A DNA stretch of 64,000 nucleotides from Chthoniobacteraceae bacterium (GCA_037190965.1 JBBCKI010000004.1:1-64000); one strand, 5' to 3'. Positions 17,702-64,000 are shown, numbered from the stretch's first letter. Notes: a model not told the origin generated them from the sequence alone. Program-made: numbers and translations.

Positions 17702-18409
17702 CTACCGATGTCTCATCAAAGTATTCCAGATGGCCTTTGCTGATAACTGATGGCCTCGGAGGTCGGGGTGATTCAACCCGTTTGCGAGCCAACTGTTCAG
17801 ATCCACTCCATCTTTATCAAGGCGCTCCCACTCGGCATAGATATCGGCAAGGAGGACGCCTTCATAGGCGGCAACCTCCCGAAGCCGTTGGGCGTAAGCA
17901 GCCAGGGTGCCGCTGGTTTGCGTACGAATAATGAGATCAGCCACTTCGGCATGCTGCTGATGAATGCGAGCCGTTCTCGCCGTCGCCATGAACGGGGGAG
18001 TTAAAACGATGATCGTTGTATTCCCAAGCGCTTTCACACCGCCAATTACTTTACGAATCGCTTTATCAAACTCCGGCAACCCTTCTTCGCCGAGGGTAGA
18101 GTCATTCAGGCCAAAAGCGATCAACAGCAGGTCGGGATGATAGTTCAAAACATCCCTTTCCAAGCGATTGAGGCCCTGCGGCGCCGTGTCCCCGGAGATT
18201 CCCGAGTTGATGACATTGATCGTGGATGTCGGATAGAATGCTTCGAGATCTTTCTGAAGCAAGCGATGATAAGTTTCGTCCGGGTTCATTCGCCCGAGTT
18301 CCATTACTCCTTGAGTAACGCTGTCTCCAAAGGCCACGATCTGAATCGCCCTGCGCCCCGGATTCCTGTCGTTCAACCGCTGGAAAAAGTGATTTCTCCC
18401 TTCAGGCAT
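17702..18409 (-). CDS. SGNH/GDSL esterase
   Basis: AFGDSVT, NSGISG, FGLND, GLNHP. Confidence 0.88.
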   Translation of the reverse strand: MPEGRNHFFQRLNDRNPGRRAIQIVAFGDSVTQGVMELGRMNPDETYHRLLQKDLEAFYPTSTINVINSGISGDTAPQGLNRLERDVLNYHPDLLLIAFGLNDSTLGEEGLPEFDKAIRKVIGGVKALGNTTIIVLTPPFMATARTARIHQQHAEVADLIIRTQTSGTLAAYAQRLREVAAYEGVLLADIYAEWERLDKDGVDLNSWLANGLNHPDLRGHQLSAKAIWNTLMRHR

Positions 18410-19400
18410 GGCGACCTCCGAAGATCAATTCCCTCATCCAACGGTTTGAACAGGTAGCATCTCCAGATGCGATCAGGGTACGCATTTCCTGTTTCCTTTG
18501 ATCTGTCATCAGTCGCTCCACGCTCTGCAGGAACGCCACGCTCTCCCCAACAGCGGCGGCACCATCCTCGCGATAGGGATATTGATCCATCGAGTACCAG
18601 CCCGCGTAACCTGTCTCGGAGAGCCAGAAAAGAAGCTCAAAATATTCAACGGTGTGAAGGGAACCTACAATCATGTCATCATCCCAAGAGCGATAATTGT
18701 CATTGAAGTGCATATGGAAGAGACGATTCTCTTCCTGAAGAATCACCGCTGCTTCCGCAACGTTCTCACCGGCCATAAACGAGTGTCCGACATCAATGCA
18801 AACGCCCACATTGTCGCACTTCGTTGCAAGCGCCATCAAAAGGGTATCCGCTGCCCTCGCTTGGAAGGAATGCGTGCGAGGCTCCTTTGGCTTGTATTCG
18901 AGCGCGAACTTCAGCTCGGGGAACTCCTGTGCAATCTTCTGGATTCCTTCAACCATGTAGCCACGCTGACGGCGATAGTCAGCAGTCAGCGGATAGTCAT
19001 AGCCATCCTGTCCAAGCCAAAGATTAATGAGAGGACACCCGAGATAGCGGGCAATCCGAGCGGCTCTCCGGGTTTCCTCCAGAGCTTCATACCGAATGCC
19101 GGAATCCTTTGCACTAAAGCTTCCGTCCCTCCACCGCTTCTGGGAGAAGAGATCAGGGATGAGCGAGACGCACTCCAGCCGATTGTCCAAAAGCGCCTGC
19201 CGCATCTCCTGTTGGTTTTCTTCAGTGATATCCCAAGTGCCCACCAGTTCCACTCCCGCCACTCCTGGGATAGCGGCGGCTTGGCGCAGAAGCTCCGGTT
19301 TCGGAAGATTCTCCTTGTAACCGGTTGGCAAAAACCGGTCACACGTATTGCCCAGGTTTCCTAGAATAACGGAGTAACGAAGCGAAGCGCGGTTGCTCAT
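18402..19400 (-). CDS. Xylose/rhamnose isomerase-like sugar isomerase (TIM barrel)
   Basis: WLGQDGYDYP, EYKPKEPR, DVGHS, HFNDN..WDDD, MDQYP metal-binding pattern. Confidence 0.85.
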   Translation of the reverse strand: MSNRASLRYSVILGNLGNTCDRFLPTGYKENLPKPELLRQAAAIPGVAGVELVGTWDITEENQQEMRQALLDNRLECVSLIPDLFSQKRWRDGSFSAKDSGIRYEALEETRRAARIARYLGCPLINLWLGQDGYDYPLTADYRRQRGYMVEGIQKIAQEFPELKFALEYKPKEPRTHSFQARAADTLLMALATKCDNVGVCIDVGHSFMAGENVAEAAVILQEENRLFHMHFNDNYRSWDDDMIVGSLHTVEYFELLFWLSETGYAGWYSMDQYPYREDGAAAVGESVAFLQSVERLMTDQRKQEMRTLIASGDATCSNRWMRELIFGGRHA

Positions 19401-19483
19401 AGGGCATGCATCCCAAATCTGACCATTTCAGTTCTCAGGAAGCGGAATTCAACTCCACCGCCCGTCTGTAAAGAATCGCTGAT

Positions 19484-20455
19484 CTACTTGGTGCCACTCT
19501 GGCTCCCAGCGCCGATTTTGCTGCCGAGCTTCGCAATCCCGAAGGATAGCAACGTGACCCCCGCAAGGCTGGCGATGGACGGTTCGGGAATGGCCGAGGC
19601 TTCCATTGTAAAGCCCTGCATTGCAAATCGCGCCCAGCCGTCGCCGTCGTAGGCACGGGACTCCAAACCGTAGGAATCAAAAAACATTCCCACCGCCTGG
19701 ATGTTGGAGAAGGTATGAGTCGCGTATCCCTCGTCAGGGGCGGCATTATAAGTACCGTCAGAGTAAGGGTCAAAACTGGCCCAGAGGGCACTGTTAGGAT
19801 TCGCCAGAGACATGGTGAACACGGTGTTGTAGGTGCCTACACCTTGGACACTGGAAACGTACCAAGTGTCGCCATCCTGAATCACCCAACGTACGTTGGG
19901 ACCAAAGTTCCCATCGGAAATCCCGGAAAACGAGAGCGAGGAGTTTTCGTCAAACGCGACCGTCGCGCTGTTCAAGTCGTTCAGGAAATCACTCTTCGAG
20001 AAATAAACCATTCCCCGAAGACGGGCCTGATATCTCGAGACTGCGATGTTGATCCGGTTCGACCAGATGGCGCGGCTATTCAGCGAACCTTCGAGCGGGG
20101 AGTCGATACCGGGATGCACACTGCCCGGGATGGTGACCGACGACGTAGCATCGGGGGTGCTGGCCATCCAGCCGCCCCAGAAGGTTGCGCTTTTTCCCTC
20201 CGGAGCGGTGTATCCCGATGTAGGGGTCAGGTTTCTGGGGCCATCGTTGAGGATGCTGGCGCTTGCGTAGATTCCGCTACCATAAGTGGTTGTAAAATCC
20301 TCGGCGGCCGCATTGCCGAAAGCTTGCCCCTCTCCATAGTCACCGCCCCAGTCTACGGCAACTGCGGCACCGGACTTCCCAGTCGTGAAAGATACCAGGG
20401 TCATGCACGACAAAACGCAAACCAATGCTCGCTTGTGAGATAGTAATCTATTCAT
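19484..20455 (-). CDS. Secreted PEP-CTERM protein of unknown function
   Basis: N-terminal signal peptide; C-terminal IPEPSIASLAGVTLLSFGIAK; aromatic/Gly-rich body. Confidence 0.8.
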   Translation of the reverse strand: MNRLLSHKRALVCVLSCMTLVSFTTGKSGAAVAVDWGGDYGEGQAFGNAAAEDFTTTYGSGIYASASILNDGPRNLTPTSGYTAPEGKSATFWGGWMASTPDATSSVTIPGSVHPGIDSPLEGSLNSRAIWSNRINIAVSRYQARLRGMVYFSKSDFLNDLNSATVAFDENSSLSFSGISDGNFGPNVRWVIQDGDTWYVSSVQGVGTYNTVFTMSLANPNSALWASFDPYSDGTYNAAPDEGYATHTFSNIQAVGMFFDSYGLESRAYDGDGWARFAMQGFTMEASAIPEPSIASLAGVTLLSFGIAKLGSKIGAGSQSGTK

Positions 20456-20536: not shown

Positions 20537-22783
20537 CTATATATTCCCGCGTTCCAGTCTCGCGAGCAGACTCTCGCAGTTGAGAATCTTCTCGGCCAGG
20601 TCAAACCGGATAAATCCATAGTGATTGGTGGCCTCAAACCCAAGGCGCGAGTCGACGGCGGCGAGATCGAAGAGCTCCCGCGCCAGATTCATCTCGCTTC
20701 GTACGATTGCGGCCGCAGCGGCATGATCGGAACCGCGAGCACGGACGAAGCGAATCTGATTGATCGCGCTTTCGAAGAGGAGGAGCGCGGCTTTGCTATT
20801 GCGCCACTCGTCCTCAATCGCGCTGGAGGGATTGGCGTGGCGTAAGGTATCAAGGAGTTCGACTCCAGGTTTCCAGAGCTGCGCAAGTTTTTCAAACTGG
20901 CCCTGCAATGTTTCCACTGAATAGGGGCCTCGCCATTTCTCCAGATCGTCAAAGGGAAAAGTAACCATAGTGGCCCGGAATCCGGACGGCTCCAGATATA
21001 GCAGATTCGCCGGGCCTAGTGCCTGAGGGCCGTTGTAACAGACGGCGGCATCAAAGGGATACTCTTCAAAGGCATCACTAAAGTGGTTCCATGCCTTCAC
21101 GATTTCTTCAGATACGGCGACACCAAACCGGCGCCGTGCGACCGCGTGCATTGCCTCGTCGACGCTTTGTCCCGGATTGCAGACAAACTCTGCGACCAGT
21201 TCCAAGTTCGGAGAGGGCGATCCGCCGTTGGTCCACCCCAGCAGAAGGGCATCAATGCCCTCTGCGGCGACATTAAAAAGATGCTCACCGACTAGACGCA
21301 AAGCGGGGATATATGGAATGGTAGGGAGTTCCCATGTGCTAACGGCAGCAATCTTAGCCGCTGTTTTTAAGCCGCGCCGACGCGCCGACGCCCACTGCCT
21401 GCGACTCTTCTCGCTCGGCCCCACAGCGGAGATCGAGTATTCGTTAACCGTTCCCGAATAATCGCCTCGTGTGAACGGGAGGCCAAACTCGCTAACGCAC
21501 AGAACCGACGCACGCTCTGTAATTTCTTCAATGATCCCCGGAATCCATTGCTCCAGGGTAGTCCAGACGTAGGACAACAGCTTTCCATCGGAACCCGCCA
21601 GGCGCATTCCCTGTTCAAGCAGGGTGTAGACCTCTGCATGAACAGATTCCGCGCTGCGCTTTTGGCAACGAGGGCATGTATTCCCGTTGCGCCCCCTTGA
21701 ATAACAGTTCGTCAGATTTTCGCTGAAGGTAATGCTGAAGATCCCCCCAAGATCGGGGACATTTTCAAAGACATGACGGACAGAGTTAACGAGGAAGGCC
21801 TGCCCGGCAGGAGTGCTTGTGCAAAGCCCAACGACATCGGGCAAGTGATCCTTGCCCTCGGGGATCTCATCGATCCCGCGTAATTCAGGATATTTCTCAT
21901 AGAACGACCGCGACAGGGCTCGCGGCTCGTTCAGGTAAAGGAAAACGTCGATGCCGTACGCGCGACACCGCTTGACAAGCCTGCGCAAATTCGCCAATCG
22001 CTCCTCCCATCCGACGGAAAGCTCGGGCGCGAGATCCCAGGGGGCCAAAGTGTTGAGCAACCCTTGAAGCCAGACGGCATTGACGCCGCTGGCGGCAAGC
22101 TCCGCAAGATAGCCCTCGGGGATATCGTCGATCCCCTCCCCCCTCAAAGGATCGCCATACCGGAGAAAGTATGGATAGACCATGCGAATCTGAAACCCTC
22201 CAGACGCCGGTGCGATAGCCTCAACCTTGGTTTCCCTGAATCGGTCGATAAAGCCAAACAACGGCTCGCTCGGAAGATGAAGCGCATTGCCAAACTTCTC
22301 CTCCATGATCCGCGCGATCTCCCTGGCCCGGGCCTGGGTCGCCGCATTGGGAGTACAATAATGAACAGGCGGGCATTCGGGTTTATAGCCGCCCAGCTTG
22401 CTCCACATGAAATCGTCTTCATTCAAGTAGAACTGCATGGTCGGCACATCCCAGCCCAGAAGCTGGCAAAGTTGCGGATAGGAAAGCAAATGCCAATTGC
22501 GGTGAAGCACGGTCATATAGTTCCTCCTCAGTTCCCCTGGGGGAATAGTGCGTTGAGCAGGGAGGCCCATCGACACGGCAATCGCCGTAATCTGCTCCGG
22601 GGTGCCGTGCAAGACTTCCGCCAACCGGTTCACCGAGATGACGTCCCAGTTCCGCCAGATGATCGTGTGTAAAGTATCGGGGAAATGCGGCACCGCAACG
22701 GGTTGCGGTGCGCATCCCACCGGGAGCGAGCGATAACTTTCGTCCGTATTGATCATCTTCAGCTTTCTACCGGTTGCCGTCAC
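20537..22783 (-). CDS. Large hypothetical protein, putative glycoside-hydrolase-like TIM barrel (alternative start 22756)
   Basis: 748-aa ORF in operon; LAELAASGVNAVWL, YGIDVFLYLNEP, LCTS, CPRC; no signal peptide. Function is inferred from context only. Confidence 0.65.
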   Translation of the reverse strand: MTATGRKLKMINTDESYRSLPVGCAPQPVAVPHFPDTLHTIIWRNWDVISVNRLAEVLHGTPEQITAIAVSMGLPAQRTIPPGELRRNYMTVLHRNWHLLSYPQLCQLLGWDVPTMQFYLNEDDFMWSKLGGYKPECPPVHYCTPNAATQARAREIARIMEEKFGNALHLPSEPLFGFIDRFRETKVEAIAPASGGFQIRMVYPYFLRYGDPLRGEGIDDIPEGYLAELAASGVNAVWLQGLLNTLAPWDLAPELSVGWEERLANLRRLVKRCRAYGIDVFLYLNEPRALSRSFYEKYPELRGIDEIPEGKDHLPDVVGLCTSTPAGQAFLVNSVRHVFENVPDLGGIFSITFSENLTNCYSRGRNGNTCPRCQKRSAESVHAEVYTLLEQGMRLAGSDGKLLSYVWTTLEQWIPGIIEEITERASVLCVSEFGLPFTRGDYSGTVNEYSISAVGPSEKSRRQWASARRRGLKTAAKIAAVSTWELPTIPYIPALRLVGEHLFNVAAEGIDALLLGWTNGGSPSPNLELVAEFVCNPGQSVDEAMHAVARRRFGVAVSEEIVKAWNHFSDAFEEYPFDAAVCYNGPQALGPANLLYLEPSGFRATMVTFPFDDLEKWRGPYSVETLQGQFEKLAQLWKPGVELLDTLRHANPSSAIEDEWRNSKAALLLFESAINQIRFVRARGSDHAAAAAIVRSEMNLARELFDLAAVDSRLGFEATNHYGFIRFDLAEKILNCESLLARLERGNI

Positions 22784-22788: not shown

Positions 22789-23985
22789 CTAATCAACCTT
22801 CAGGAGAACGCCTTCAATGTAGGTATTATTCGCGGTCCCGAGCTTGGCGTCGGCTCCATAATAGGTCAGATAGGCGTGATTCTCATCAATCACCACGAGG
22901 GAATGGGAGCCACCATTATTACCATCGGGAACGCCATTGGTCCGGGTATAGGGGGCGGTCCCGCCAAACTTGAAGTCGTATCCGTCGCGACTGGTGTAAT
23001 AGTAGGTTGTCCGGGAGGGCTTCGAATGCCGATTGCCACAGACCATCAGGTAGCGATCGTCCGCAAGCCGTACAATGGCAGGAAAAAGCCCGCCTATATT
23101 GGTCTCCTTCGGTTCGCTCCACGTGGCTCCATGATCAGTGGACTCCACTACCCAAAGGTTGTTCCCGTCGACCGGCCAGACTGCCTTCTGATTTCCCACG
23201 TCCAACGCTGTATCCTTCCTTTCGGAATCGATGCGGGCATAGGCAATCACCGTTCCATTCTTGTTCAGAAAATAGGCAGCCTCATTGAATCCGAGTGGAT
23301 TCTCCCGTCCTTCGACCGGGTCCTTAAAGGCAACCTCCATGCGCCCCCACGTCTTGCCCCCGTCCCGGCTTCTGAAAAAGCCGCTCCCATACTGAAATCC
23401 CTCTTCTCTCGGGGAAACACCAGGATACTGGAACCCGGGCATGATCAAGTCGCCATTGGCCAGCACCACCACCGTCCCCATGATTCCGGCGGAACACTTC
23501 TTCGGAAGCGGAAGCACGCCGTCATCCACAAAGGTCTTCCCGCCATCAGTGCTTCGCTCCAGCTTAAACTGGGTGGTGTGCCCCTTGAACACCGCATCCC
23601 AGGTGGGATCATCACTAAGATAGGTTTCCACCATTTTCGTCAGCAAGAGATCTCCATTCGGAAGGGAGGCAATAGCGATCGCCGTTCCGACATTGGGCAA
23701 ATCCGACTTCATGGTATGAAACGGCTTGGACCAAGTTTTCCCCAGATCCGTACTCCGCACCAGATACCCTGCGCTTCCGGGCTTTATGTCGACCCCGTCA
23801 ATAAAGGCGGCTATCAGTTCCTTCTCACCCACCCGCACAACTCCCATTGGGAGCATTGAGTTTGGGATAAAGGTATTAACAATGGCGGTACGCACTGCCC
23901 GAACCTTGGGTGCCTCCGACTCATTAGCTGTTCCTTGGGCGGCGAATGCAATCGCGGCCATCGTGGTGAGGATTAGTAGTTTCAT
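22789..23985 (-). CDS. Secreted BNR/Asp-box beta-propeller (sialidase-fold) protein
   Basis: Signal MKLLILTTMAAIAFAA; Asp boxes STDLGKTW, STDGGKTF, SRDGGKTW, STDHGATW, SRDGYDF. Confidence 0.85.
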   Translation of the reverse strand: MKLLILTTMAAIAFAAQGTANESEAPKVRAVRTAIVNTFIPNSMLPMGVVRVGEKELIAAFIDGVDIKPGSAGYLVRSTDLGKTWSKPFHTMKSDLPNVGTAIAIASLPNGDLLLTKMVETYLSDDPTWDAVFKGHTTQFKLERSTDGGKTFVDDGVLPLPKKCSAGIMGTVVVLANGDLIMPGFQYPGVSPREEGFQYGSGFFRSRDGGKTWGRMEVAFKDPVEGRENPLGFNEAAYFLNKNGTVIAYARIDSERKDTALDVGNQKAVWPVDGNNLWVVESTDHGATWSEPKETNIGGLFPAIVRLADDRYLMVCGNRHSKPSRTTYYYTSRDGYDFKFGGTAPYTRTNGVPDGNNGGSHSLVVIDENHAYLTYYGADAKLGTANNTYIEGVLLKVD

Positions 23986-24125
23986 GCGCAAAAGTTTTAC
24001 AGAAGAGAAAAGAAAGGGCAGCGGGAATCCGGCGCTGTTCTTGTTTGTCCAGCAGTTCGGAATGACTAAGGGGGGCTGACGGCTAAGGTATGTCCGATGC
24101 CATGGTTCTCAATTAATTTATACTG

Positions 24126-24140
24126 GTAATAATTTATGAC
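24126..24140. promoter_or_regulatory. Putative operator, imperfect palindrome GTAATAATTTATGAC (site 1)
   Basis: 12-bp identity with 33833-33844; lies in the divergent promoter region next to the GntR gene. Confidence 0.55.
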
Positions 24141-24299: not shown

Positions 24300-25472
24300 A
24301 TGAAAAGACGCACACCAAAGCCAAAGGCCTCGCCCTCACCGCGGGCGCAAGACAAGGAGCATCGGGCGTCTTCATCCCAGACGCTCATGCCAGCCCCCCC
24401 CGCCTTTCCAACGCCGGAACGTCGCTCTCTCATCGATCAGACGCTACAAGCCATTCGAAGCCGAATCGAGGCCAGGGTTTGGGATGACAAACTGCCGGGC
24501 GAACGATATTTTTGTGAGCTCCTTCAAGTGAGCCGGCCAACCGTCCGCTCGGCTCTGGCAATTCTCGAGAAAGAGGGAGTGATCTCCGTCGCCCGAGGAA
24601 CGAATCGGGCTCTTAATCACGTGGCACCGTCCTCCAAACGGCGCCTTGAAAGCGATCGTCACGTCATTGTTTTGAGCCCGGATTCCCGCCACCAAATGCA
24701 TCCGACGGCAATCTATCTTGTAGATGAGATTCATACCCATCTCGAAAAGGTAGGTTTCAGGCTCTCCGTCGAATCACCCGCCTGGCTCAGCTATCAGGAC
24801 CCCACGCCATACCTTGAGAAATACGTGGCCGAAAACCCTGCGGCTTGCTGGGCCCTGTTCTCAGTCTCGGAAGCGGTGCAGAGGTGGTTCTCGAAGAAGC
24901 GGGTGCCCGCATTAGTCTCGGGCTCATGTTATGAATTTGTCGCGCTCCCTAGTTTGGACTTCGACTATGTCCCCGTCACCAATCATGCCGTGGCTACGTT
25001 CCTGAACAAAGGCTGCAAAAGCATCTCGCTGCTTGTTGGAGGAAAACTTCGTCCGGGAGACATTGCCACGATGACGGCGTTTAATGAGGCTATGCTGCGC
25101 CACTCGGAGACCAGCTCCTCCATTATACGGGTGGCCGCAGAAAAGATCGCGTTCGAGCAACAACTCGACGCCACAATGCGCGCCTCCAGCGGAAAGCAGG
25201 GGCTCTTCGTGTTTGACGCCTTGGTTACGCTCCATACTGTCACCTATCTGCTCCAGAAGAACTGCCGAATCGGCACCGATTTCGCGATCATTTCACGCGA
25301 TGAAGACTTCTACCTCGATCATCTGGTCCCATCGCCAGCCCGTTACCGGATCGATAAGAAGAATTTCGCCAGCAAGTTCTGCAGAAAGCTCCTCCAACTT
25401 GCCCAAACGGGAAATCTGGGCACCAAGAACACACTCATCATTCCCGACTTTTACCCTGGAGAAACGCTCTGA
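24300..25472 (+). CDS. GntR winged-HTH regulator with LacI-type periplasmic-binding-fold effector domain
   Basis: LPGERYFCELLQVSRPTVRSALAILEKEG; C-terminal PSLDFDY, FAIISRD, PSPARY. Confidence 0.85.
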   Translation: MKRRTPKPKASPSPRAQDKEHRASSSQTLMPAPPAFPTPERRSLIDQTLQAIRSRIEARVWDDKLPGERYFCELLQVSRPTVRSALAILEKEGVISVARGTNRALNHVAPSSKRRLESDRHVIVLSPDSRHQMHPTAIYLVDEIHTHLEKVGFRLSVESPAWLSYQDPTPYLEKYVAENPAACWALFSVSEAVQRWFSKKRVPALVSGSCYEFVALPSLDFDYVPVTNHAVATFLNKGCKSISLLVGGKLRPGDIATMTAFNEAMLRHSETSSSIIRVAAEKIAFEQQLDATMRASSGKQGLFVFDALVTLHTVTYLLQKNCRIGTDFAIISRDEDFYLDHLVPSPARYRIDKKNFASKFCRKLLQLAQTGNLGTKNTLIIPDFYPGETL

Positions 25473-25475: not shown

Positions 25476-25639
25476 CTAGTGTCCTGTCAGATAAATCCTT
25501 TAAACAAGTCCGAGGCGATTTTTCGAATCTCCAAGGCGCGAGCAAGGGCGATATCCAAAGATACCGGCCGCGCGAGCAACGCCGGAGATTCGGAAAAGCG
25601 CCCGGAATTATGACAAGGATTTGGCTGACAGGACACTAG
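25476..25639. mobile_element. 164-bp MITE with CTAG ends
   Basis: Perfect 15-bp TIR CTAGTGTCCTGTCAG 25476-25490/CTGACAGGACACTAG 25625-25639, extended by AAATCCTT/AAGGATTT; internal CGAATCTCC/GGAGATTCG stem; non-coding. Confidence 0.8.
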
Positions 25640-33783: not shown

Positions 33784-33832
33784 GCCGGAGACCATTGAAT
33801 GAGCCGCACCCAACCTGAAGCATAATCCAGAT

Positions 33833-49138: not shown

Positions 49139-49181
49139 ATTCAATCGTCCAATCTGTAAGCTCTATCGCAAAACCACCCAA

Positions 49182-53026: not shown

Positions 53027-53665
53027 ATGCCACGATCTCCATTCCCCCTCACGATCTCCCTTCTTTTACTCGCCCTCTTCGGATCGCAGTCATGGGCCGC
53101 GGAAAACCTCTTCGAAATTGGCCTCGACGCCCCTGCCCAGACACTGATAGACGGCGTTCCTTTGGGCTGGATAGCGCGGCCCGCTGTTCCAGGATACATA
53201 CCCGCCAAGGAGTTTACGTTTACGGAGGATGCTGAAAAGTCAAAGGACAGCAAAAAGCCTTTCACGCGTCTAAACATCAAGGGCGAGGAAGGGTTCTTTG
53301 TTCTTGAGTCACACAAGATCGTGATTCCTGAACCCGGTGACTATCGGTTCTCAATGGAGCTCGATAGCGCATTTTCGACCTCTCTTGGCATCAATTTTCG
53401 TCGGCAGCCCCACGCTCAGGAAGAGCCCGTGATCATCTACGAGGCTCCCCGGGGAGTGAATGTTTATAAGTCGAAGTTTTCTGCCGAAATCATGAGATCA
53501 AGTTTTCCTCCCGGGGATTATCACGAGGTCGTTCTACACCTCACAGTGCCGCCTGGGGTGGAGTCGATCGTCATCAATCTCCGTTGCAGGGTCACCGAAA
53601 CGGATGGCAATACCCTCGCGTTCGGAAACGTCAAGTTGGAAAAGGAGACCGAAGAGGGACACTAG
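53027..53665 (+). CDS. Secreted hypothetical protein, possible beta-sandwich/CBM-like; start re-chosen at ATG 53027
   Basis: Signal ..LLLLALFGSQSWA|AENL; PGDYRFS, LTVPPGVESIVINL, FGNVKLE. Confidence 0.65.
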   Translation: MPRSPFPLTISLLLLALFGSQSWAAENLFEIGLDAPAQTLIDGVPLGWIARPAVPGYIPAKEFTFTEDAEKSKDSKKPFTRLNIKGEEGFFVLESHKIVIPEPGDYRFSMELDSAFSTSLGINFRRQPHAQEEPVIIYEAPRGVNVYKSKFSAEIMRSSFPPGDYHEVVLHLTVPPGVESIVINLRCRVTETDGNTLAFGNVKLEKETEEGH

Positions 53666-53728: not shown

Positions 53729-53767
53729 CTAGTGTCGTGTCAGGCTAATCCCTTAGCACGACACTAG
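53729..53767. mobile_element. 39-bp internally deleted relative of the CTAG MITE
   Basis: CTAGTGTCGTG 53729-53739/CACGACACTAG 53757-53767; left end matches the 25476 TIR at 14/15 positions. Confidence 0.6.
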
Positions 53768-56099: not shown

Positions 56100-56599
56100 T
56101 GTTCACCTTCCGAAAAAAGTTCGTCATCCCGTTATCGCTCCGCACCTTCGTCGAGGCAAGCCAACATCCATTCCTTAAAACAGGCTTCTTCTCAGGGAAA
56201 ATCCCGTCGGGGTTCATAGTTTTCAACATTGAGCTTCACCATTCCCATTTATTCTACCTCCTGACAAGCACCAAAAATAGCAAAACTCTTTTTTGCTCCT
56301 CTCCTCTCATTTCGTTAACACGACCTAGTCAAATTTCCATCTCACGCCGCAGGCGGCGGGAGATCCGACTGAAAGAACTTTTATTGACAAAGCCGCATCG
56401 AGCCGCCACCCTCACGCATAGCGAGCACCCTTTCTTGAGGTCCATTTTCAGTTATTCTAGGTTGTGTTTAGGAAGATGAAGCCGAGTCGTGATCGGCGGA
56501 TACGTTTTGGACGGCGAAATGGTGAGCTGTTAAAATTTCAGATCCGAGGAGGTCGCAAATAGTGATCACTAGGCGACGTCGAAAGATTGCATTACCCGA

Positions 56600-58798
56600 A
56601 TGGAGCCAGTAGCCAACATGATCCATCATTACACAATTGCACAGCACAAGGGGCGCCCGCTCCTCTTTGAGAACGACCAGCCACGCTCTTTGGTCATGTA
56701 TTGTCCCGGCAACGCTATCGGCAATCAGTCGCGGGAGGACGTGGATCGGTTCCTTGATGCTGGCATCACGGATTTCTATTTATGGATGGGGCGTCACGAG
56801 AAAGAACCCGATGGAATGACGACGCCGTTCTGGAAAGGGGCCGATGAACTTGGGGAACCTGTTTTTATCTCTCCGGAACGATTCTATTCTCTGCCCGAGA
56901 AAATCGCCTATATTGTGGAACGCTGCCCGGAAGCTCGATTTTTGCTCCGTTACTATGCGCATCCTACCAAACAGTGGAAGGCAAAGTACCGGGAAGAGAT
57001 GGCAGTCGATGAAACAGGATCGATTCTCGATGAGACATCGCTAGCCAGCGAAAGGTACGAGGATGATCACCGGCGTGTTCTGCTGCACATGATTCATTGG
57101 GTCGAGCAGCAGCCGTGGGCATGGCGCATCCTTGGATATATCTCCCTGCATGAGTTTGAAGGCACCACGGAAAATGGCTGTAAGGGGATGCTTTTCGATT
57201 ACAGCGAACCGATGCAGGCGGCCTTTCGCGAGTTTGCTCCGCAATGGGAGGGCGTCCCGCTCAACCGATTCGCCAGGCGCGATAAGGAGGAACTCAAACA
57301 TTGGCCCGATCCCGCAACCACATCGGCAGAGCGGGACTATTTCGAATTGCAGCGCCAGCTGTTTTTCCGGCGCTGTCAGCGGTTTTTGAGTACGGCCAGG
57401 GAAGCGCTCAACGGTCGCAGAGTCTTGCTGGGAATGGATGCATTGAAGCAGGGGATGCAGGGGTGGATCTGCTATCCCTTTTTCTCGGGTAAAGCACCGA
57501 GGGTACATTATGGGCATATACTTGCGGCATCCGGTTCGATCGGGGTGGATAAAGTCTTCGAAATTCCCGGGTTCAATACTCTCAACACACCGTATGATTA
57601 TACCTTCCGCCATATGGGAGGCTCGCCCGAACCGGAAGGGATTGTCGATAGCTGCGTGCTTCGCGGAAGAATGTTTCTGGTCGAGGATGACTGCCGCAGT
57701 TTCACGGCTAGCGAAAATGAAAGCTATGGCTACTTCCGGAACCAACAGGAAGCAGAAGCCGGTTTGTGGCGCAATGCGGCAGCAGCCATCGCGCGCGGCT
57801 ATCAGGCCTATTGGATGGACGTCACAGGTTTTCCTTCTCCCCGGGGCGGATATTTCCGCGATCCTGCGATCATGAATGTCATCAAGTCGATTGCGCCTGT
57901 CATGAGGGCGAGTATCGACTGGGAACATGCAGAGGTGCCGGGCATTGCGGTGGTGCTCGACGACCGAGCGGCGTTGTCGGAAAATTTTTCCGCGGATTTT
58001 CAAAATCTATCGGTGATGTGGCAGAGGTTGACAGGGCTGGCCCAGGCTGGCGTGCCCTATCGTGTTTATCTCTGGGAAGATCTTCTTATGGACAGCTTTC
58101 CCGACCATCGGCTCTTTATCTTTCCAAATCTTTTCCGGGTGGATCAGGAGCGATTCGACATCCTACGGGAGCGGGTCTGTCGCGATGGACGTGTGGTGCT
58201 TTGGGGACCGGGGACCGCAATCAGCGATGGGTGTCAGCTCGGCGCCGAGTGGGCCAGCAGGGTGACAGGAATACCGATGACCCTGTTTGGGGATTGTTTT
58301 TCGCGGCGCGTGGTATTGACGAAATTCGACCACCCAATTACCGAGCGATTGCACGGCTCGCTCTCTTATGGCGACGGCACTCCCTACGGGCCAACGCTGC
58401 TTCCGGAATGGGACCCTTCCCTCTCCGAACAAGGCATCGTGCTAACCGCGCGCGGAGTAAACCGTCCCGGTCTGGTCATCAAGGAACTGGGCGAAGGGAA
58501 CCAGCGCTGGACGAGCGTGTTTACAGCGGCGGTTCCGGTTCCCGCAGTCCTGATCCGAGAGATGGCACGTCATGCCGGCGCCAACATCTATTCAGAGGAA
58601 AATGACGTGATCCTCGCCTCCCGAAATTTCCTAGGTGTGCATTCTGTTCGTGCCGGACGGCGACGGATCAAGCTGCCGGAGGTTTCCGAAATCAGGGATG
58701 CCCTCTCGGGAGAGTTGATCAGCCCTGCCGCCGATGAGATCGAACTGGTGGTCACCCCGCCACAGACCCGTCTTTTCCGCATCAATCCGAAAGGGTAA
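56600..58798 (+). CDS. Putative glycoside hydrolase, GH42-like (TIM barrel + trimerisation domain)
   Basis: SLASE, DYSEPMQAAFR, TPYDY..R, EDDCRS; C-terminal IAVVLD..GVPYRVYL.EDL..RLFIFPN; no signal peptide. Confidence 0.65.
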   Translation: MEPVANMIHHYTIAQHKGRPLLFENDQPRSLVMYCPGNAIGNQSREDVDRFLDAGITDFYLWMGRHEKEPDGMTTPFWKGADELGEPVFISPERFYSLPEKIAYIVERCPEARFLLRYYAHPTKQWKAKYREEMAVDETGSILDETSLASERYEDDHRRVLLHMIHWVEQQPWAWRILGYISLHEFEGTTENGCKGMLFDYSEPMQAAFREFAPQWEGVPLNRFARRDKEELKHWPDPATTSAERDYFELQRQLFFRRCQRFLSTAREALNGRRVLLGMDALKQGMQGWICYPFFSGKAPRVHYGHILAASGSIGVDKVFEIPGFNTLNTPYDYTFRHMGGSPEPEGIVDSCVLRGRMFLVEDDCRSFTASENESYGYFRNQQEAEAGLWRNAAAAIARGYQAYWMDVTGFPSPRGGYFRDPAIMNVIKSIAPVMRASIDWEHAEVPGIAVVLDDRAALSENFSADFQNLSVMWQRLTGLAQAGVPYRVYLWEDLLMDSFPDHRLFIFPNLFRVDQERFDILRERVCRDGRVVLWGPGTAISDGCQLGAEWASRVTGIPMTLFGDCFSRRVVLTKFDHPITERLHGSLSYGDGTPYGPTLLPEWDPSLSEQGIVLTARGVNRPGLVIKELGEGNQRWTSVFTAAVPVPAVLIREMARHAGANIYSEENDVILASRNFLGVHSVRAGRRRIKLPEVSEIRDALSGELISPAADEIELVVTPPQTRLFRINPKG

Positions 58799-58832: not shown

Positions 58833-58865
58833 TTGACGTTTTGCAATGTATCCATTTATTCTACC
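58833..58865 (+). promoter_or_regulatory. Putative sigma70 promoter of vccA, overlapped by the repeated motif CCATTTATTCTACC
   Basis: TTGACG 58833-58838, 18 bp spacer, TATTCT 58857-58862; the 14-mer 58852-58865 is identical to 56245-56258. Confidence 0.55.
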
Positions 58866-58874: not shown

Positions 58875-61800
58875 ATGATTTATTTTAGGCAAGCTACTGC
58901 GACATGGAGGCGTTTTGTCCGAAGGAATCCCGCGCATCATAGACGACCGACTTTTCGCCAAAGAAAGAACCAGAAAGGTTGGGCGCTCTTTCTCATTCTG
59001 GTGGTACTTGCGATCCTCTCCGTGGTGATTCTCGCTTTCCTATCTTCGACGAGAACCGACCTCGCCATGAGTTCGGCTTATAACTACTCGAACCAATCAC
59101 GCATGACCGCCGAGAGCATCGGCAATCTTATTGTCGGACAGATTCGGCAGGCCACCTCCCAGCCCAAAGCGACGTGGATCACCCAACCCGGCCTCATCAG
59201 GACATTTCTGGAGGACGGTTCTGTAGGCCCTGCCTACAAGCTCTACTCTTCGAACGTCATGATCGCCGCGGGAGGCTTTGACCCCGAAGCAGCCCTCAAC
59301 ACAGAGGTTCCAGGCGATTGGCCTTCAAGGCCGGACCAGTTTTTTGATCTCAATCGGCCGATAAAGAATGCGACCGGCCAATGGATTTATCCCATTCTCA
59401 ATCCTGCGGCGGAAGGCGTGATCGAAGGGTTCAAGAATCTTAGCGCCGAAAAACAAATCGCTGCGGGCACGGCGCCCGCCTACACAGCTCCCAGTGCAAA
59501 GCCTTTGCCCATGCCAGTCCGGTGGCTCTATGAATTGGAAGACGGAACACTGGCCGCCCAAGGGGACGATGGCAAGATCCCAGGAACAAGCGCGTCCAAT
59601 CCGCCGGTTGCCCGGTTGGCTTTTTGGACGGATGATGAAACCTGCAAGATCAACCTGAATACCGCATCCTCGGGCATGTATTGGGACGCCCCGCGCGGGA
59701 GGGGGAACAACTTCGAAAAGGGGGACTTCGCTACCGGCGCGGCGGGAAGCGATCCCATTGTCGCCAAGACGGGGCTGGCCGCTTCTCCGCCCGGGCAGGG
59801 GGAATATAATCGCTATCCCGGGCACCCCGCGACCACTTCGCTCGACGTCGTCCTTTCCAATACCGCCTTCTTCACGACTATTCTTGACGATACAGAGAGG
59901 CGAAAAAAGATCCTCTCCTACTCTCCTCGGATCAGGTTTGGGGGTTCCAAGTTCGGATCGGCCTTCCCGCAGAAGAAAGACGCCATCGTACCGGGAAGCG
60001 AGAGACTCTACGCCACCATCGACGAGTACTTTTACTCGCCAAACCGATCGCCCAACAACGATGGAAAAAACGGCATCCTTGCGGACAAGCTCGATCTCGC
60101 CCGTTTCTTCCTGACGACCAATAGCCGCTCCCCGGAAGCGACGGTCTTTAATACCCCACGGGTCACCATCTGGCCCATGCCCCGCAACAAGGCAGATAGG
60201 ACCCCCTATGACACAACCATCGCCTTCTGCTCGAGCATCGGCGGACGGGAATACTTGTTCACCCGGGGAAAGTTTTTGGACGGCGCCTTTAGTCTGTCCA
60301 GCAACAACACCCTCACCGGCGCCAGCACCATTCCCGCTCTAAATCCCACCATGGATTTCACTACAACAAATAGTGAAATTTATGACTACCTATATCATGA
60401 GATGCAGCGTTCCATTCCGGGTTACGGCGCCTCGCTGCAAGACAAATTCCAGGGCGATACTTCCTCAATATTGACCCTCATCTACGATTACATCCGCTCG
60501 ACCAATCTCTACGACTTGAGCGCGCCAAATTCCGCTCCGTACACATCCCGGCCGTTCCTGCAAAATGAACTGGTCAAGTATCTCGGCGTGCCGACGGCAG
60601 GTGCGAGCCACTCCTCAACGGATATTGCTTCACTGGCAAGGCCCAGTTATAGCGATTCAAGTCCAGCAACCTATTATCATCACATCGGCAGCGCCTATGT
60701 CGGCCAGGTTGTCCCGATCAACATCACGCGCAACGGTAATACCACCCGCGGGTTGGGACGTTTTCCGGTCATCACCGGAGCCACCCTGGTCCTTTTCGCT
60801 ACTGATCCCGTCGACATGACCTTGAAATATGAAGACTGGAAGGACCCTCAAGATGAAACTTACGCCAAACACAAAGCTCCAACTGCCGTCCCCGAATTCG
60901 CCTCCTTTTCTCCGTCGCAAACGCCTCCCGTCCCTGCTCACCCGGCCTCAAAAATCCAGGCATTTCTGCTATTTTCTGTAGCCACCCCAAGCGCGGGCGC
61001 TTTAGGGCACGCATTCAGTTACGATCTGGAAGTCACAGGGCTCGATGGTGCCCAATTAACGACGGTGAACGAATTGGGGTCCCCGACAACCGTCCCGATG
61101 GGATTCCCACCGCTCGCGATCAATCGAGTTGCTTCCGGAATCCAAGGCACGATCGGACTGAGCGCCAACTTCGTGCAAATGAAGGGGGTTCCAAATTGGG
61201 GGAACCCCTTCACTTACGCCGCGATGAAAACACTGGGAGAGCCTTCCCTCTATAACATCAGATCAAAAACTGCCATTACCCCTGCCACGGGAGATAACGC
61301 CCACGTCTATCCATTTGTCAGCGCAATTCTCCCGATTAATGGCAGCCCTACCGTCAGCTTTGGCGACGTGACCATGAACGTTACCATCAAGGTCGACAAC
61401 AACTCACTCCAAACCTACACCATCAAACTCCCTGCCTTTACCGCACCCGCGCCGAAATGGGCCCTATTGGGAAAAGAAAAGATAAACTCAGATAACACAG
61501 TTATTCATCATTGGTACGACTCTCTCGTCTCGGGGCGAGACGCCAAGGAAAGGGGCCGTCTGCTCGGCCTCGGCGGCGATACGCGTTATAGCAACGGCAT
61601 GAATATCCCGTTTGCCGGCGAGGAGAGGAATCTTCCTACGTTAATCTTGCCCTATGACCTAGACGTGGTGCGTGGAGTCGAGCTTGTCCACGGCGACTTT
61701 CGTTTGATCGGAGGCACGCCCATCGTACCCGAAACTGAATACCAAAAGTGCGATGGCTATGATGACTCCTCCCGCTTCCAGGCCTGCAATCTTATTCTGC

Positions 61801-63011
61801 ATCCAAAGAGCAGCTTTGGGCGGTTAACCCCAGGCAATGCCCCTGAGGATATCCTACCCAAGCTGGGCCTGCCCAGCCGCTTGACTGCTGCCCTGCGTAA
61901 GGACGGAAAGCCGGGGGATTGGGATGCAGGCATGCCCTTTGTGAACGGCTATGGAGACGGATGGGCCGATTCCGGGCCCTATATCAACAAGGCCGACGAC
62001 GGAGCATTTGGCTACAGGGCAAATTCCACGGGCACGCCCGTTGTTCCCTATTTTCGCTCCGCAGCCTCGCTCGTCATGGAGCAGAACGCCTATACACCCA
62101 ATCGAATTCTGCCATCTGCCGTGATGTTCGGCTCGCTACCCGTTGGAGTGGTACGAGGTCTCCCCTGGCAGACCCTCCTCTTCCGGCCCGATTACCCGTC
62201 CCATCCCGGCGCGAGTTCTCCCCCCGATCATTTGGTGCTCGACCTCTTTGCAATGCCTACAGTCGAGCCCTACCCCATTAGCGAACCATTCTCTACCGAT
62301 GGCAAAGTCAACCTGAACTTTCAGATCGCTCCTTTTACCTACATCAAGCGGGACACCGCGCTCCGGGCCGTGCTGCACGCCACGCGCCTTTTTGCCGTCC
62401 CCGCAACGAACGCTTACCTGAATGTCTTTGATTACGCGGGCACTACAGCAGCCGCAGGAGTGAGATACAACTATCGCTATCCCATCAACAGGGACGCGAC
62501 TATGAAACTCTTCGAGGATCGCCTAGCCTCCAACAAGCCCTTCCTCACCGCCTCCGCCATTTGTGAGATGCCCCTCGTGCCTAAGCCCGAAAGCTTGGTG
62601 GCATCAGGAATCCAGCCACAATCCGATACTCCGTTTCAAGCAACCCTTTCCGACTCCGCATCGGTTTCGGTGATCGATACCTACCTCAAAAATTTCTGGG
62701 ACACTTGGGGTAACGGCACGGCTGACAACCTTCGGGAGCGGCCGTACACCACCATCTACCCTCGTGTCACCGCCCGATCGAATACCTTCACCGTGCACAT
62801 GTGTGTTCAGCGGCTGAAAAGATCACCAAGCTCGGAGGCTGATACTTTCAACAGCTCCAAAGGCGGCCAAATCACCAGCGAGTACCGCGGTTCAGTCAGC
62901 ATCGAGCGTTTCCTTGACGCCAACAACACCGATTTCGAAATTGACCAGGCAGGCAGCCAACTCGGGCCCTATTTGTTTAGAGTCACCAACTTCAGAGAGT
63001 TCTCCCCCTGA
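58875..63011 (+). CDS. vccA: Verru_Chthon cassette protein A; start re-chosen at ATG 58875
   Basis: KG|WALFLILVVLAILSVVILAF leader; AYKLYSS, PMPVRWLY, RLAFWTDDETCKINLNTA, YPGHPATTSL, PWQTLLFRP, PDHLVLDLF..VEPYPISEPFST.GKVNLN, ERPY..IYPRVT.RSNTFTVH. Confidence 0.92.
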   Translation: MIYFRQATATWRRFVRRNPAHHRRPTFRQRKNQKGWALFLILVVLAILSVVILAFLSSTRTDLAMSSAYNYSNQSRMTAESIGNLIVGQIRQATSQPKATWITQPGLIRTFLEDGSVGPAYKLYSSNVMIAAGGFDPEAALNTEVPGDWPSRPDQFFDLNRPIKNATGQWIYPILNPAAEGVIEGFKNLSAEKQIAAGTAPAYTAPSAKPLPMPVRWLYELEDGTLAAQGDDGKIPGTSASNPPVARLAFWTDDETCKINLNTASSGMYWDAPRGRGNNFEKGDFATGAAGSDPIVAKTGLAASPPGQGEYNRYPGHPATTSLDVVLSNTAFFTTILDDTERRKKILSYSPRIRFGGSKFGSAFPQKKDAIVPGSERLYATIDEYFYSPNRSPNNDGKNGILADKLDLARFFLTTNSRSPEATVFNTPRVTIWPMPRNKADRTPYDTTIAFCSSIGGREYLFTRGKFLDGAFSLSSNNTLTGASTIPALNPTMDFTTTNSEIYDYLYHEMQRSIPGYGASLQDKFQGDTSSILTLIYDYIRSTNLYDLSAPNSAPYTSRPFLQNELVKYLGVPTAGASHSSTDIASLARPSYSDSSPATYYHHIGSAYVGQVVPINITRNGNTTRGLGRFPVITGATLVLFATDPVDMTLKYEDWKDPQDETYAKHKAPTAVPEFASFSPSQTPPVPAHPASKIQAFLLFSVATPSAGALGHAFSYDLEVTGLDGAQLTTVNELGSPTTVPMGFPPLAINRVASGIQGTIGLSANFVQMKGVPNWGNPFTYAAMKTLGEPSLYNIRSKTAITPATGDNAHVYPFVSAILPINGSPTVSFGDVTMNVTIKVDNNSLQTYTIKLPAFTAPAPKWALLGKEKINSDNTVIHHWYDSLVSGRDAKERGRLLGLGGDTRYSNGMNIPFAGEERNLPTLILPYDLDVVRGVELVHGDFRLIGGTPIVPETEYQKCDGYDDSSRFQACNLILHPKSSFGRLTPGNAPEDILPKLGLPSRLTAALRKDGKPGDWDAGMPFVNGYGDGWADSGPYINKADDGAFGYRANSTGTPVVPYFRSAASLVMEQNAYTPNRILPSAVMFGSLPVGVVRGLPWQTLLFRPDYPSHPGASSPPDHLVLDLFAMPTVEPYPISEPFSTDGKVNLNFQIAPFTYIKRDTALRAVLHATRLFAVPATNAYLNVFDYAGTTAAAGVRYNYRYPINRDATMKLFEDRLASNKPFLTASAICEMPLVPKPESLVASGIQPQSDTPFQATLSDSASVSVIDTYLKNFWDTWGNGTADNLRERPYTTIYPRVTARSNTFTVHMCVQRLKRSPSSEADTFNSSKGGQITSEYRGSVSIERFLDANNTDFEIDQAGSQLGPYLFRVTNFREFSP

Positions 63012-63042
63012 TCTCCCAAGCGCCCCTCTACTCCTCCCCCCC

Positions 63043-63531
63043 ATGACTCCAAAGCACTTTGCCGAATATCAGCCCCCACCAGGCCGCTCTGCACACCGGG
63101 CGTCGGCCTTCTCATTGGTCGAAATCGTCCTCGCCCTCTCGATTCTTTCATTTGGACTAGTTGCCCTGCTGGGGCTCTTCCCGGTCGGGCTCGGAGCGTT
63201 CCGCAATTCCAAGGAGAAGGTCACTCATGGAGAAATCATCAAACTGCTTGCTTCCGAGCTCTCCTCCATGAGGTTTGATCAACTCGCTAGTGTCCGGGGC
63301 AAACCCTACTATTTTGCAGAGGATGGTTCCCCTGTGATCGATACCAACGAGTCATTCGTTTATCGCGTCGAGATCGACGTAGTTCAGCCGAACACCCCCC
63401 TGCCGACAGGCACCACGTCCCCAGCGTCTCTGTCCGATTGCAGCACCGTGCAGATCCGCATCGCTCACGCTCGGCCCGAGAACGCAACACCGTGGCGCTA
63501 CAATCTCATCATCGCCAACCGAGGCTTATGA
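63043..63531 (+). CDS. vccB: Verru_Chthon cassette protein B (pilin-like); start re-chosen at ATG 63043
   Basis: A|FSLVEIVLALSILSFGLVALLGLFPVGL; YFAEDG; follows vccA directly. Confidence 0.88.
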   Translation: MTPKHFAEYQPPPGRSAHRASAFSLVEIVLALSILSFGLVALLGLFPVGLGAFRNSKEKVTHGEIIKLLASELSSMRFDQLASVRGKPYYFAEDGSPVIDTNESFVYRVEIDVVQPNTPLPTGTTSPASLSDCSTVQIRIAHARPENATPWRYNLIIANRGL

Positions 63532-64000
63532 CCCGCCTGCCTACCATTTCGACATCGAGGAACAGGGCTTTCACGCTTGTGGAGTTGCTGGTCTCCCTGA
63601 CCGTGATGGTACTGCTCGCTGTCATTCTCGTTGGAATTCTCGATTCTGCCTCGCGCATCACCCAACAGACCCGAAATTCCATCGAATCGTTTCAAGCCGC
63701 ACGCGCGGCGTTTGAAACCATCACCAGCCGTCTGGCTCAAGCGACCCTCAACACCTACTATAGCTACGACGATCTGGCCAACCCCACTCTTTACCGCCGC
63801 CAATCCGAACTGCACTTTTTGACGGGCCAGGCGAAGGATATTTTGCCTTCCGACGTTTTGCAGAACCAACGTTTCGGACACGCCATTTTCTTCCAATACC
63901 CAGGTGGCTTCAACCCGGACCTGACGGGCCCTCTCCGCGAGTTGTTGAACGGATGTGGCTATTTCATCTCTTTCTGCAAGGAAGATGATGAGCGCCTTGG
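63528..64000 (+). CDS. vccC: Verru_Chthon cassette protein C (partial, runs off the window; not in the ORF track)
   Basis: ATGA overlap with vccB; manual translation MTRLPTISTSRNRA|FTLVELLVSL...FQAARAAFETITSRLAQATLNTY...YRRQSELHF...HAIFFQ.P...LLNGCGYF. Confidence 0.88.
   Translation, partial: MTRLPTISTSRNRAFTLVELLVSLTVMVLLAVILVGILDSASRITQQTRNSIESFQAARAAFETITSRLAQATLNTYYSYDDLANPTLYRRQSELHFLTGQAKDILPSDVLQNQRFGHAIFFQYPGGFNPDLTGPLRELLNGCGYFISFCKEDDERL

Follow-up and report, generated by a model that had tools for sequence, protein, structure and literature searches.

A stretch of 64,000 nucleotides from a Chthoniobacteraceae bacterium (G000:C4:1-64000; hereafter the window) carried two gene clusters, locus 1 (17702-34652) and locus 2 (41525-64000), and both were glycan-utilisation loci without SusC/SusD. 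Each combined a GntR regulator and a PEP-CTERM protein with pilin genes, namely a single H-X9-DG-type prepilin in locus 1 and a four-gene Verru_Chthon cassette (Vcc) in locus 2. The core of regulator, PEP-CTERM protein and pilin is real and recurrent, broader in substrate and narrower in parts than the initial annotation of the window had described, and its mechanism is a proposal. A substrate-dedicated pilin and a PEP-CTERM binder would work on shared retractile type IV machinery and move the substrate to the periplasm, a reading that may well be right and that we stop short of calling probable.

Pilin neighbourhoods across the genome

The genome (4.2 Mb, 97% complete) yielded 3394 genes with a hexamer-scored open reading frame (ORF) picker, and 88 ORFs with a prepilin leader, 15 VccA genes and approximately 30 H-X9-DG pilins were counted. 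A PEP-CTERM gene of the strict set (n = 77 in the genome; n = 86 under a looser definition) lay within five genes of 25/30 H-X9-DG pilins, compared with a background of 18.5% (p = 0.0005; permutation tests were contig-matched). At the same distance, a GntR/LacI-type regulator was present for 17 of the 30 pilins (background 10.6%, p = 0.0005). Other non-cassette pilins had a PEP-CTERM gene nearby in one of 15 cases and a regulator in none of 15. When counted from the other side, 25 of the 86 loosely defined PEP-CTERM genes had an H-X9-DG pilin within five genes.

The enrichment of H-X9-DG genes near carbohydrate-active enzymes (CAZymes) that the initial annotation had anticipated was borne out. 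For 31 pilins outside the window, 30/146 neighbouring proteins belonged to Pfam families of CAZyme or carbohydrate-binding module (CBM) type, against 7/94 control proteins (p = 0.004), and by locus 19/30 against 4/20; the tally is our own reading of Pfam names and includes DUF4838, DUF6259, BNR, beta-helix, GDSL and laminin-G, and its control regions lay at least 20 kb away from any pilin locus, a choice that tends to enlarge the difference. Among large H-X9-DG neighbours, DUF4838 proteins were the commonest (8/146), and they frequently carried GH67N, CBM9 or GH2 sugar-binding domains. They stood in loci L001, L002, L004, L011, L017, L020, L024, L028, L225 and L234 and may represent a new family of CAZymes or binders.

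A fused importer, in which a solute-binding protein (SBP) is joined to a MalF-type permease, had been counted among the core parts in the initial annotation, and this did not hold. Eight SBP-MalF fusions were present in the genome, each followed by an insert-bearing MalG. A fusion was found within five genes of 3/30 H-X9-DG pilins (p = 0.07, not significant) and within ten genes of 1/15 VccA genes, with permutation p values for the fusion link of 0.07-0.79; a pilin or VccA lay within ten genes of four of the eight fusions (p = 0.44). The fused importer as core partner of the pilins was rejected on these permutation results. Set against the strong PEP-CTERM and regulator links, the 3/30 figure leaves regulator, PEP-CTERM protein and pilin as the core, and the weak fusion link makes the importer one optional inner-membrane step. 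Equivalent pilin loci in four other genomes include sodium-solute symporters. The fusion was found in 44/151 genomes of the phylum, mostly in single copy, and in 10/121 genomes of the order, own genome included. Locus L082 repeats the window design (regulator, PEP-CTERM protein, pilin, Gfo dehydrogenase, fusion and MalG) and L081 nearly does so, making two of 15 true-fusion loci.

Heme, zinc and B12 loci

The initial annotation had restricted the system to glycans; however, the pilin/PEP-CTERM pair also occurred in heme, zinc and B12 loci, which in diderms normally carry a TonB receptor. The heme locus (C13:60999-68143, L026) ran AraC, PEP-CTERM protein, H-X9-DG pilin, hemS and hmuTUV, with no TonB receptor. 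The zinc-type locus (C71:19226-22595, L023) held Fur, cobW, a pilin and a choice-of-anchor-M PEP-CTERM protein. In the B12 locus (C18:63641-65491, equal to L005:6448-8298), a cobalamin riboswitch (Rfam) stood directly 5' of the PEP-CTERM gene and H-X9-DG pilin, and a flavin reading of this locus was rejected because the cobalamin riboswitch precedes it. Orthologous pairs were found elsewhere in L237 (B12-type) and L236 (zinc-type), with a further cobW-pilin-PEP-CTERM locus in L224. A pilin on C53 was rejected as a liv operon partner, the genes lying on opposite strands.

A search for hemS gave hits in 11/300 other genomes of the phylum, resulting in 12 loci, and an H-X9-DG pilin was present in eight of the 12. 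In two others, L072 and L077, a TonB receptor confirmed with Pfam was present and a pilin was not. L072 kept a protein homologous to the PEP-CTERM protein of the C13 heme locus (E 3e-19), together with homologues of the surface proteins found with the pilin in L026, L068 and L070. The heme-locus pilins formed one clade (100/99) with the C13 pilin and its C30 paralogue, with a bootstrap not fully settled and many long branches, though their neighbours span three surface-protein families. The zinc and B12 pilins had clear best matches in genome G123, which belongs to another family (37% and 45%), and the adjacent PEP-CTERM proteins matched too. Pilin clades followed substrate, as the description of the pilins as substrate-specific had implied. 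The C30 paralogue (C30:205-8360, L015) has two large PEP-CTERM proteins, of 835 and 1552 aa, as neighbours and no hemS. In the heme-locus surface proteins of L067, L068, L070, L071, L073 and L075, the PEP-CTERM tail is replaced by an InlB-like repeat and a ...LRLxxP-like ending, and this C-terminal region is possibly a second sorting signal.

The profile scan of the 46 window ORFs gave no family match to a TonB receptor or SusD, in agreement with the initial annotation; SusD was not searched genome-wide. Two TonB receptors were found in the genome, on C62 and C45; one adjoins nikR/cbiMQO-like genes and the other PepSY-like genes (by inspection), which are metal-uptake surroundings. At C28:92003-102636, a PEP-CTERM gene is followed by outer-membrane barrel-, ExbB-, ExbD- and TonB-like genes with no classical receptor (by inspection), a possible alternative energised uptake module.

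Pilin loci were also examined in four receptor-rich genomes with 8 to at least 10 TonB receptors, from which 20 of 77 pilin matches, high-scoring and on long contigs, were fetched. A PEP-CTERM gene lay within 5 kb in 18/20 and a regulator in 12/20, and the neighbours were mostly CAZymes. Five other receptor-rich genomes had one to four mostly partial pilin matches. Across 151 genomes, TIGR04294 was found in 61 and PF00593 in 92.

The two glycan loci of the window

All genes that the initial annotation had named in the two loci were recovered at their positions in ORF and profile scans (46 window ORFs; Pfam and NCBIfam/TIGRFAM profiles), with signal peptides judged by inspection and hydropathy. 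Locus 1 comprised:

17702..18409, minus strand, GDSL/SGNH esterase (PF13472, E 4.6e-25)
18402..19400, minus strand, xylose-isomerase-like TIM-barrel sugar isomerase (PF01261; TIGR02631/TIGR02635 under cut-off)
19484..20455, minus strand, PEP-CTERM protein, predicted CBM-like beta-sandwich and candidate glycan binder (C-terminal PEP motif and hydrophobic tail)
20537..22783, minus strand, 748-aa conserved protein, no signal peptide seen (no Pfam/PDB match)
22789..23991, minus strand, BNR/Asp-box (sialidase-like) protein, secreted (PF13088, E 2e-14; signal-like N-terminus)
24126..24140, unstranded, locus-1 operator candidate, a near-palindrome, copy 1 (between BNR and GntR)
24300..25472, plus strand, regulator 1, GntR helix-turn-helix with a periplasmic-binding-protein-like sensor (PF00392, PF13377)
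25636..28080, minus strand, GH78 alpha-L-rhamnosidase-like protein, no signal peptide seen (PF17389/PF17390/PF05592)
28087..29946, minus strand, MalG-type permease with a periplasmic insert of approximately 390 aa (PF00528; hydropathy)
29952..32519, minus strand, sugar-binding protein fused to MalF-type permease (PF01547 and PF00528 in a single ORF)
32512..33813, minus strand, Gfo/Idh/MocA dehydrogenase (Pfam scan)
33833..33847, unstranded, locus-1 operator candidate, copy 2 (between Gfo and pilin)
33897..34652, plus strand, H-X9-DG-type prepilin (processing site before 33981; motif His at 34545)

The locus-1 pilin had a class III prepilin leader with Glu5 (TIGR02532, 23.8 against 16.3 bits) and a literal H-x9-DG motif near the C-terminus (His217...Asp227-Gly228). 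Its score for TIGR04294 was under the cut-off (14.4 against 19 bits), and it aligned with paralogues that pass. A Cys pair and the DG were conserved across 23 pilin paralogues, with hypervariable heads on a conserved pilin frame. In the AlphaFold2 model (predicted local distance difference test, pLDDT, 72.8 overall and >90 in the core), a helix of approximately 50 residues (31-81) was followed by a beta-sheet head with disordered variable loops. When this model was compared in VIA, the top 17 rows were pilins (best Z 5.7, root-mean-square deviation (rmsd) 3.8 over 122 residues); Foldseek returned nothing at E<=0.001. The protein is predicted to adopt the type IV pilin fold.

A PEP motif, a hydrophobic segment and a basic tail were seen in the PEP-CTERM proteins of both loci, and an exosortase gene was located on C42. 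The PEP-CTERM profile models matched neither protein; PF07589 was found on 5/11 homologues of the locus-1 protein. The model of the locus-1 protein (pLDDT 64) was a beta-sandwich with mostly CBMs among its top VIA matches, first a mannanase CBM (Z 9.1, rmsd 3.2, 133 aligned), followed by CBM70 and CBM61 (Z 8.3 each), with a non-CBM fold on par (Z 8.8). These proteins would presumably lie at the cell surface and bind ligand.

Relatives of the 748-aa protein (36-47% identity) were present in 44/300 other genomes of the phylum, with no match in Pfam or PDB sequence searches; from its context, it is likely an unclassified cytoplasmic glycosidase. A check for a glycan-locus swap through this protein did not find it in the receptor-rich families f6 (0/21) and f7 (0/26). 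In 20 loci fetched of 61 matches outside the genome, a pilin was seen in five and a receptor in none.

Locus 2 comprised:

41525..43174, minus strand, MalG-type permease with periplasmic insert (Pfam; hydropathy)
43201..45951, minus strand, SBP-MalF fusion (Pfam)
46127..49144, minus strand, secreted 1005-aa protein, likely a heparinase II/III-like polysaccharide lyase (Atlas neighbours)
49182..52709, minus strand, 1175-aa PATR/PEP-CTERM protein with autotransporter passenger-type beta repeats (PF12951 five times, TIGR02601; PEP motif and tail)
53027..53665, plus strand, small secreted 212-aa protein, no family match in profile scans (signal-like N-terminus)
53764..54936, minus strand, GntR regulator 2 (PF00392)
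55035..56099, minus strand, Gfo/Idh/MocA dehydrogenase (Pfam scan)
56245..56258, unstranded, locus-2 14-bp motif, copy 1
56600..58798, plus strand, 732-aa GH42-like protein, no signal peptide seen (Atlas neighbours)
58852..58865, unstranded, locus-2 motif, copy 2 (10 bp 5' of the likely vccA start)
58875..63011, plus strand, VccA, Verru_Chthon cassette protein A (TIGR02600, 771 bits against a cut-off of 332)
63043..63531, plus strand, VccB (TIGR02598, 61.3 against 51.4 bits)
63528..64000, continuing to C4:64589, plus strand, VccC (TIGR02599, 268 against 256.5 bits)
C4:64562-65173, just beyond the window, vccD (TIGR02596, 88.9 against 70 bits)

The Vcc set A-D thus consisted of four adjacent genes, each above its NCBIfam cut-off. 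The N-terminus of VccA was weakly GspK-like (NF037980, E 4.5e-4, under cut-off) and VccD was GspH-like; the N- and C-parts of VccA were conserved and its middle was variable. Neither the 1005-aa nor the 732-aa protein had a Pfam or PDB match. Atlas neighbours of the former carried PF16889 (15% of members) and PF07940, and those of the latter beta-galactosidase/PF02449 on 25% of members, so the heparinase II/III-like and GH42-like identities are leads. Homologues of the 1005-aa protein were found in 0/300 other genomes, and the 1175-aa PEP-CTERM protein had no beta-barrel domain match. Directly 3' of vccD, integrase-like and RHS-like ORFs (C4:65674-72000) mark the right edge of the island.

In part-by-part BLAST of the two loci, three of eight pairs aligned, with 35% over 569 aa for the SBP-MalF fusions, 48% over 285 aa for the MalG permeases and 26% for the Gfo dehydrogenases. 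No alignment was obtained for the regulators, the PEP-CTERM proteins or the enzymes. Origin by locus duplication was rejected on this result, the loci being alike in roles and not in ancestry. Signal-like N-termini were seen in the BNR protein, the lyase-like protein, the 212-aa protein and both PEP-CTERM proteins. By inspection, GH78, the 748-aa protein and the GH42-like protein had no signal peptide, indicating that these would act after import.

No ATP-binding cassette (ABC) ATPase gene was found in either locus, and orphan MalK-type ATPases were located at C18:67690 and C45:39964. The components of a CUT1 importer would thus be divided, with SBP-MalF and MalG in the loci and a presumed MalK partner elsewhere. 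The inserts of the MalG partners measured 300-450 aa in seven to eight paralogues, and no family matched them apart from a weak GH42 fragment in the locus-1 insert. A GH42-type repeat was rejected as a trait common to the inserts, the pattern being present in one of eight. The insert may stand in for the P2 loop of MalF or provide a second site for binding.

The repeated motif of each locus, which also precedes its pilin gene or genes, was confirmed, and each was private to its locus. The locus-1 motif, a 15-bp near-palindrome at 24126 and 33833, lay in divergent promoter regions at both copies; with up to two mismatches it had four matches genome-wide and was intergenic only at these two positions. 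Its GT...AC ends fit the consensus of GntR operators. The locus-2 motif was an exact 14-mer at 56245 and 58852, its sole two genome matches at up to one mismatch. These sites are operator candidates through which the loci may be regulated. A 37-bp inverted repeat at 25476/25603 was rejected as an operator; it was repetitive extragenic palindromic (REP)-like, with seven matches on four contigs. A REP-like 15-bp element occurred as an inverted pair downstream of GntR1 (25476-25639) and once downstream of GntR2 (53729-53743).

Two further groups of genes were seen in the window. To the left of locus 1 (13190-17312), a third PATR/PEP-CTERM protein (760-aa ORF) adjoins a LytS/LytTR pair and is without its own pilin. 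Between the loci (35474-41483) lie two AraC regulators, each with a Gfo dehydrogenase and a sugar isomerase/epimerase, and the locus motifs are absent there.

Proposed uptake route, alternatives and known systems

In the proposed route, a GntR repressor would release its private operator, the PEP-CTERM protein would bind glycan at the surface, and secreted BNR or lyase-like enzymes would cut it. The locus pilin, either a single H-X9-DG protein or the four-gene Vcc set, would join a shared retractile type IV filament, and the pilin-bearing filament would deliver fragments to the periplasm, through a secretin across the outer membrane. The SBP-MalF/MalG importer, powered by an orphan MalK, would take the fragments into the cytoplasm, where their breakdown would be completed by GH78, the GH42-like protein, the Gfo dehydrogenase and the isomerase. 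We infer the incorporation of the pilin into a filament and, above all, the import step. As for filament machinery, the genome had five secretin matches, five PilB/GspE-like ATPases, four PilT over cut-off and four PilC/GspF-like proteins. Two type II secretion system (T2SS)-like operons with GspG/H/I/J/K-like genes and secretins were present, and, by inspection, an operon running from PilM to secretin was seen on C18, with dephospho-CoA kinase and rho-like genes behind it.

Extended to the Planctomycetes-Verrucomicrobia-Chlamydiae (PVC) bacteria, this would be a general third route for high-affinity uptake of nutrients across the outer membrane, in which interchangeable substrate-dedicated pilins and PEP-CTERM binders, one retractile machine and a secretin replace TonB receptors for glycans, heme, zinc and B12. 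The pilin library of such a route would consist of H-X9-DG singles and Vcc tip sets. We hold this extension to be possible, with considerable doubt.

Besides the loose tie of the importer to the pilins, several points weigh against import by pilins. The supporting evidence is entirely genomic, and the structural matches are of middling quality, with Z 5.7 for the pilin and, among many beta-sandwiches, Z 9.1 for the PEP-CTERM protein. In locus 1, the pilin and PEP-CTERM genes are 13 kb apart, beyond the typical pair of this genome. Proteomics of Akkermansia was equivocal on surface display, more PEP-CTERM peptide having been detected in intracellular than in outer-membrane fractions (accessible part of PMC4960237). 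Intergenic regions of control 20-kb windows shared a word of at least 12 bases in 41/172 cases and of at least 14 in 25/172, some of these words being real operators or repeats; each motif alone is therefore modest evidence. Single-copy fusions elsewhere mostly lacked a nearby pilin: among 40 fetched loci, 13 had a prepilin (several of them from very pilin-rich genomes), nine a full H-X9-DG pilin and one a receptor. The neighbourhood links of the Vcc genes were weak: a PEP-CTERM gene lay within ten genes of 11/15 VccA genes (p = 0.03), a weaker tie than for H-X9-DG pilins, and a regulator near 9/15 (p = 0.09), and no significant link to the fusion was seen. The case for locus 2 rests on weaker statistics than that of the locus-1 pilin family.

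The alternation of pilin and receptor is likewise imperfect. Of the eight heme loci with a pilin, L073 had both pilin and TonB receptor nearby, and L070 and L075 lay on short contigs; in L074 and L076, neither pilin nor receptor was in view. The depletion near TonB-dependent receptors proposed in the initial annotation appeared at the 20 pilin loci of receptor-rich genomes, where no receptor was found, nor any among 52 further large proteins scanned, but this is close to chance, with one to two expected by an estimate from receptor density. At family level it did not appear: the anticorrelation of pilin and receptor over 12 families with at least four genomes was not significant (rho -0.25, p 0.43). 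The pilin-rich families f13 (pilin in 20/24, receptor in 0/24) and f20 (12/14 and 0/14) are two lineages, kin and not independent, and f19, f29 and f30 had little of either family.

The tightest link, that of pilin to PEP-CTERM gene with cognate co-inheritance, would also be expected if the pilins were cargo-specific adaptors of a T2SS pseudopilus that exports the PEP-CTERM protein and large enzymes, with products entering by porins. The 1175-aa PEP-CTERM protein fits this, since its passenger-type repeats come with no barrel match and another export route is then needed; so do the two T2SS-like operons and the likeness of VccA to GspK (weak) and of VccD to GspH. However, an H-X9-DG pilin lies within five genes of only 25/86 PEP-CTERM genes in the loose set, and in L072 the heme-locus PEP-CTERM family is retained alongside a TonB receptor although the pilin is missing. 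The heme pilins are one clade though their neighbours are of three surface-protein families, and a path across the outer membrane would still be required for heme and B12. Export is unlikely in our view, and to be taken seriously.

Hypervariable heads on a conserved frame, and the variable middle of VccA, would suit adhesin tips that tether the cell to a polymer or particle, with uptake by porins or other channels. There are precedents in the lectin minor pilin PilC (accessible part of PMC9934059), in the attachment model for the Akkermansiaceae locus MUL2 (PMC13174399) and, in the portion available of PMC11131199, in Fimbriiglobus pili adhering to chitin. Adhesion fits the Vcc set best; it does not account for the recurrence of the pair in loci for the soluble substrates zinc, B12 and heme, or for the alternation with a TonB receptor, and we consider it quite improbable. 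A further alternative, in which porins feed sugar ABC loci of an ordinary, Gram-positive-like kind and the pilins are co-regulated passengers in accessory islands, is very unlikely: most window hydrolases appear cytoplasmic, the fusions of those 44/151 genomes often stand without pilins, and in pilin-rich lineages many 20-kb windows will contain a pilin by chance, but the enrichment of H-X9-DG pilins holds under contig-matched permutation and is not seen for other pilins, distant families retain the substrate-linked clades, and an operator-like motif lies directly before the pilin and vccA.

The proposed uptake by pilin and PEP-CTERM binder shares parts with several known systems. The Bacteroidota SusC/SusD polysaccharide utilisation locus (PUL) has the same plan, with regulator, surface binder, secreted enzymes and importer in one substrate-specific locus, and the window loci likewise co-locate CAZymes and a regulator (GH78, BNR, GDSL and GntR, with the lyase-like and GH42-like proteins as leads). 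In contrast, they have no receptor or SusD, PEP-CTERM proteins in place of lipoproteins, a pilin in the receptor's place and a fused ABC importer at the inner membrane. CUT1 MalEFGK importers have the SBP_bac_1, MalF and MalG domains and the orphan MalK elsewhere in common with the importer here, which differs in its SBP-MalF fusion and the 300-450-aa MalG insert and belongs to a PVC-wide family with eight copies in this genome. A type IV-like pilus locus of Akkermansiaceae, MUL2 (amuc_1099-1102), has been tied to glycan attachment and uptake (PMC13174399). It is likewise a verrucomicrobial type IV-like pilus tied to glycan, but a single conserved locus, reported to be less conserved in Chthoniobacterales (PMC13174399), whereas dozens of dispersed substrate-specific pilins are found here. 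Type 4 filament minor pilins (ComP, PilC of S. sanguinis, the GspH-I-J-K tip) have the pilin fold in common, ComP being among the top VIA rows (Z 4.8), and function in DNA uptake, adhesion or export, where one pilin or a few are involved. We know of no case in which such pilins have been multiplied for separate nutrients, each together with a PEP-CTERM partner.

The H-X9-DG and Vcc families are catalogued without an assigned function. The locus-1 pilin resembles the H-X9-DG prepilin domain family (TIGR04294/DUF1559, PF07596) in its class III leader, length of approximately 250 aa, literal motif, weak PF07596 match and many paralogues, and differs in scoring under the TIGR04294 cut-off. In the available portions of its descriptions, DUF1559 is an expanded PVC solute-binding family, with no link made to PEP-CTERM proteins or to TonB receptor replacement. 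The Verru_Chthon cassette (TIGR02600, TIGR02598, TIGR02599 and TIGR02596) is complete here, and forms part of a glycan locus in which vccA is preceded by a shared motif. A TIGRFAM comment reportedly notes the adjacency of Vcc genes to large PEP-CTERM genes with autotransporter repeats. No description of the pilin/PEP-CTERM pairing was found in the literature covered, which excludes most subscription papers; the accessible parts of PMC4807772, PMC2754498, PMC11131199, PMC11685898, PMC1569441, PMC4960237 and PMC12570417 do not describe it.

Verrucomicrobiota and Planctomycetota are major polysaccharide degraders that take glycans into the periplasm (PMC13174399 and the accessible part of PMC11685898). 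Many of them have few or no TonB receptors, and uptake by dedicated pilins would address how substrates cross their outer membrane. The H-X9-DG and Vcc families would gain a concrete, falsifiable role. The heme locus is the simplest test case, with the substrate known from hemS-hmuTUV and the pilin alternating with a TonB receptor. Regulator, PEP-CTERM protein and pilin together may serve as a genomic marker for substrate-specific loci that are invisible to SusC/D-based PUL callers.

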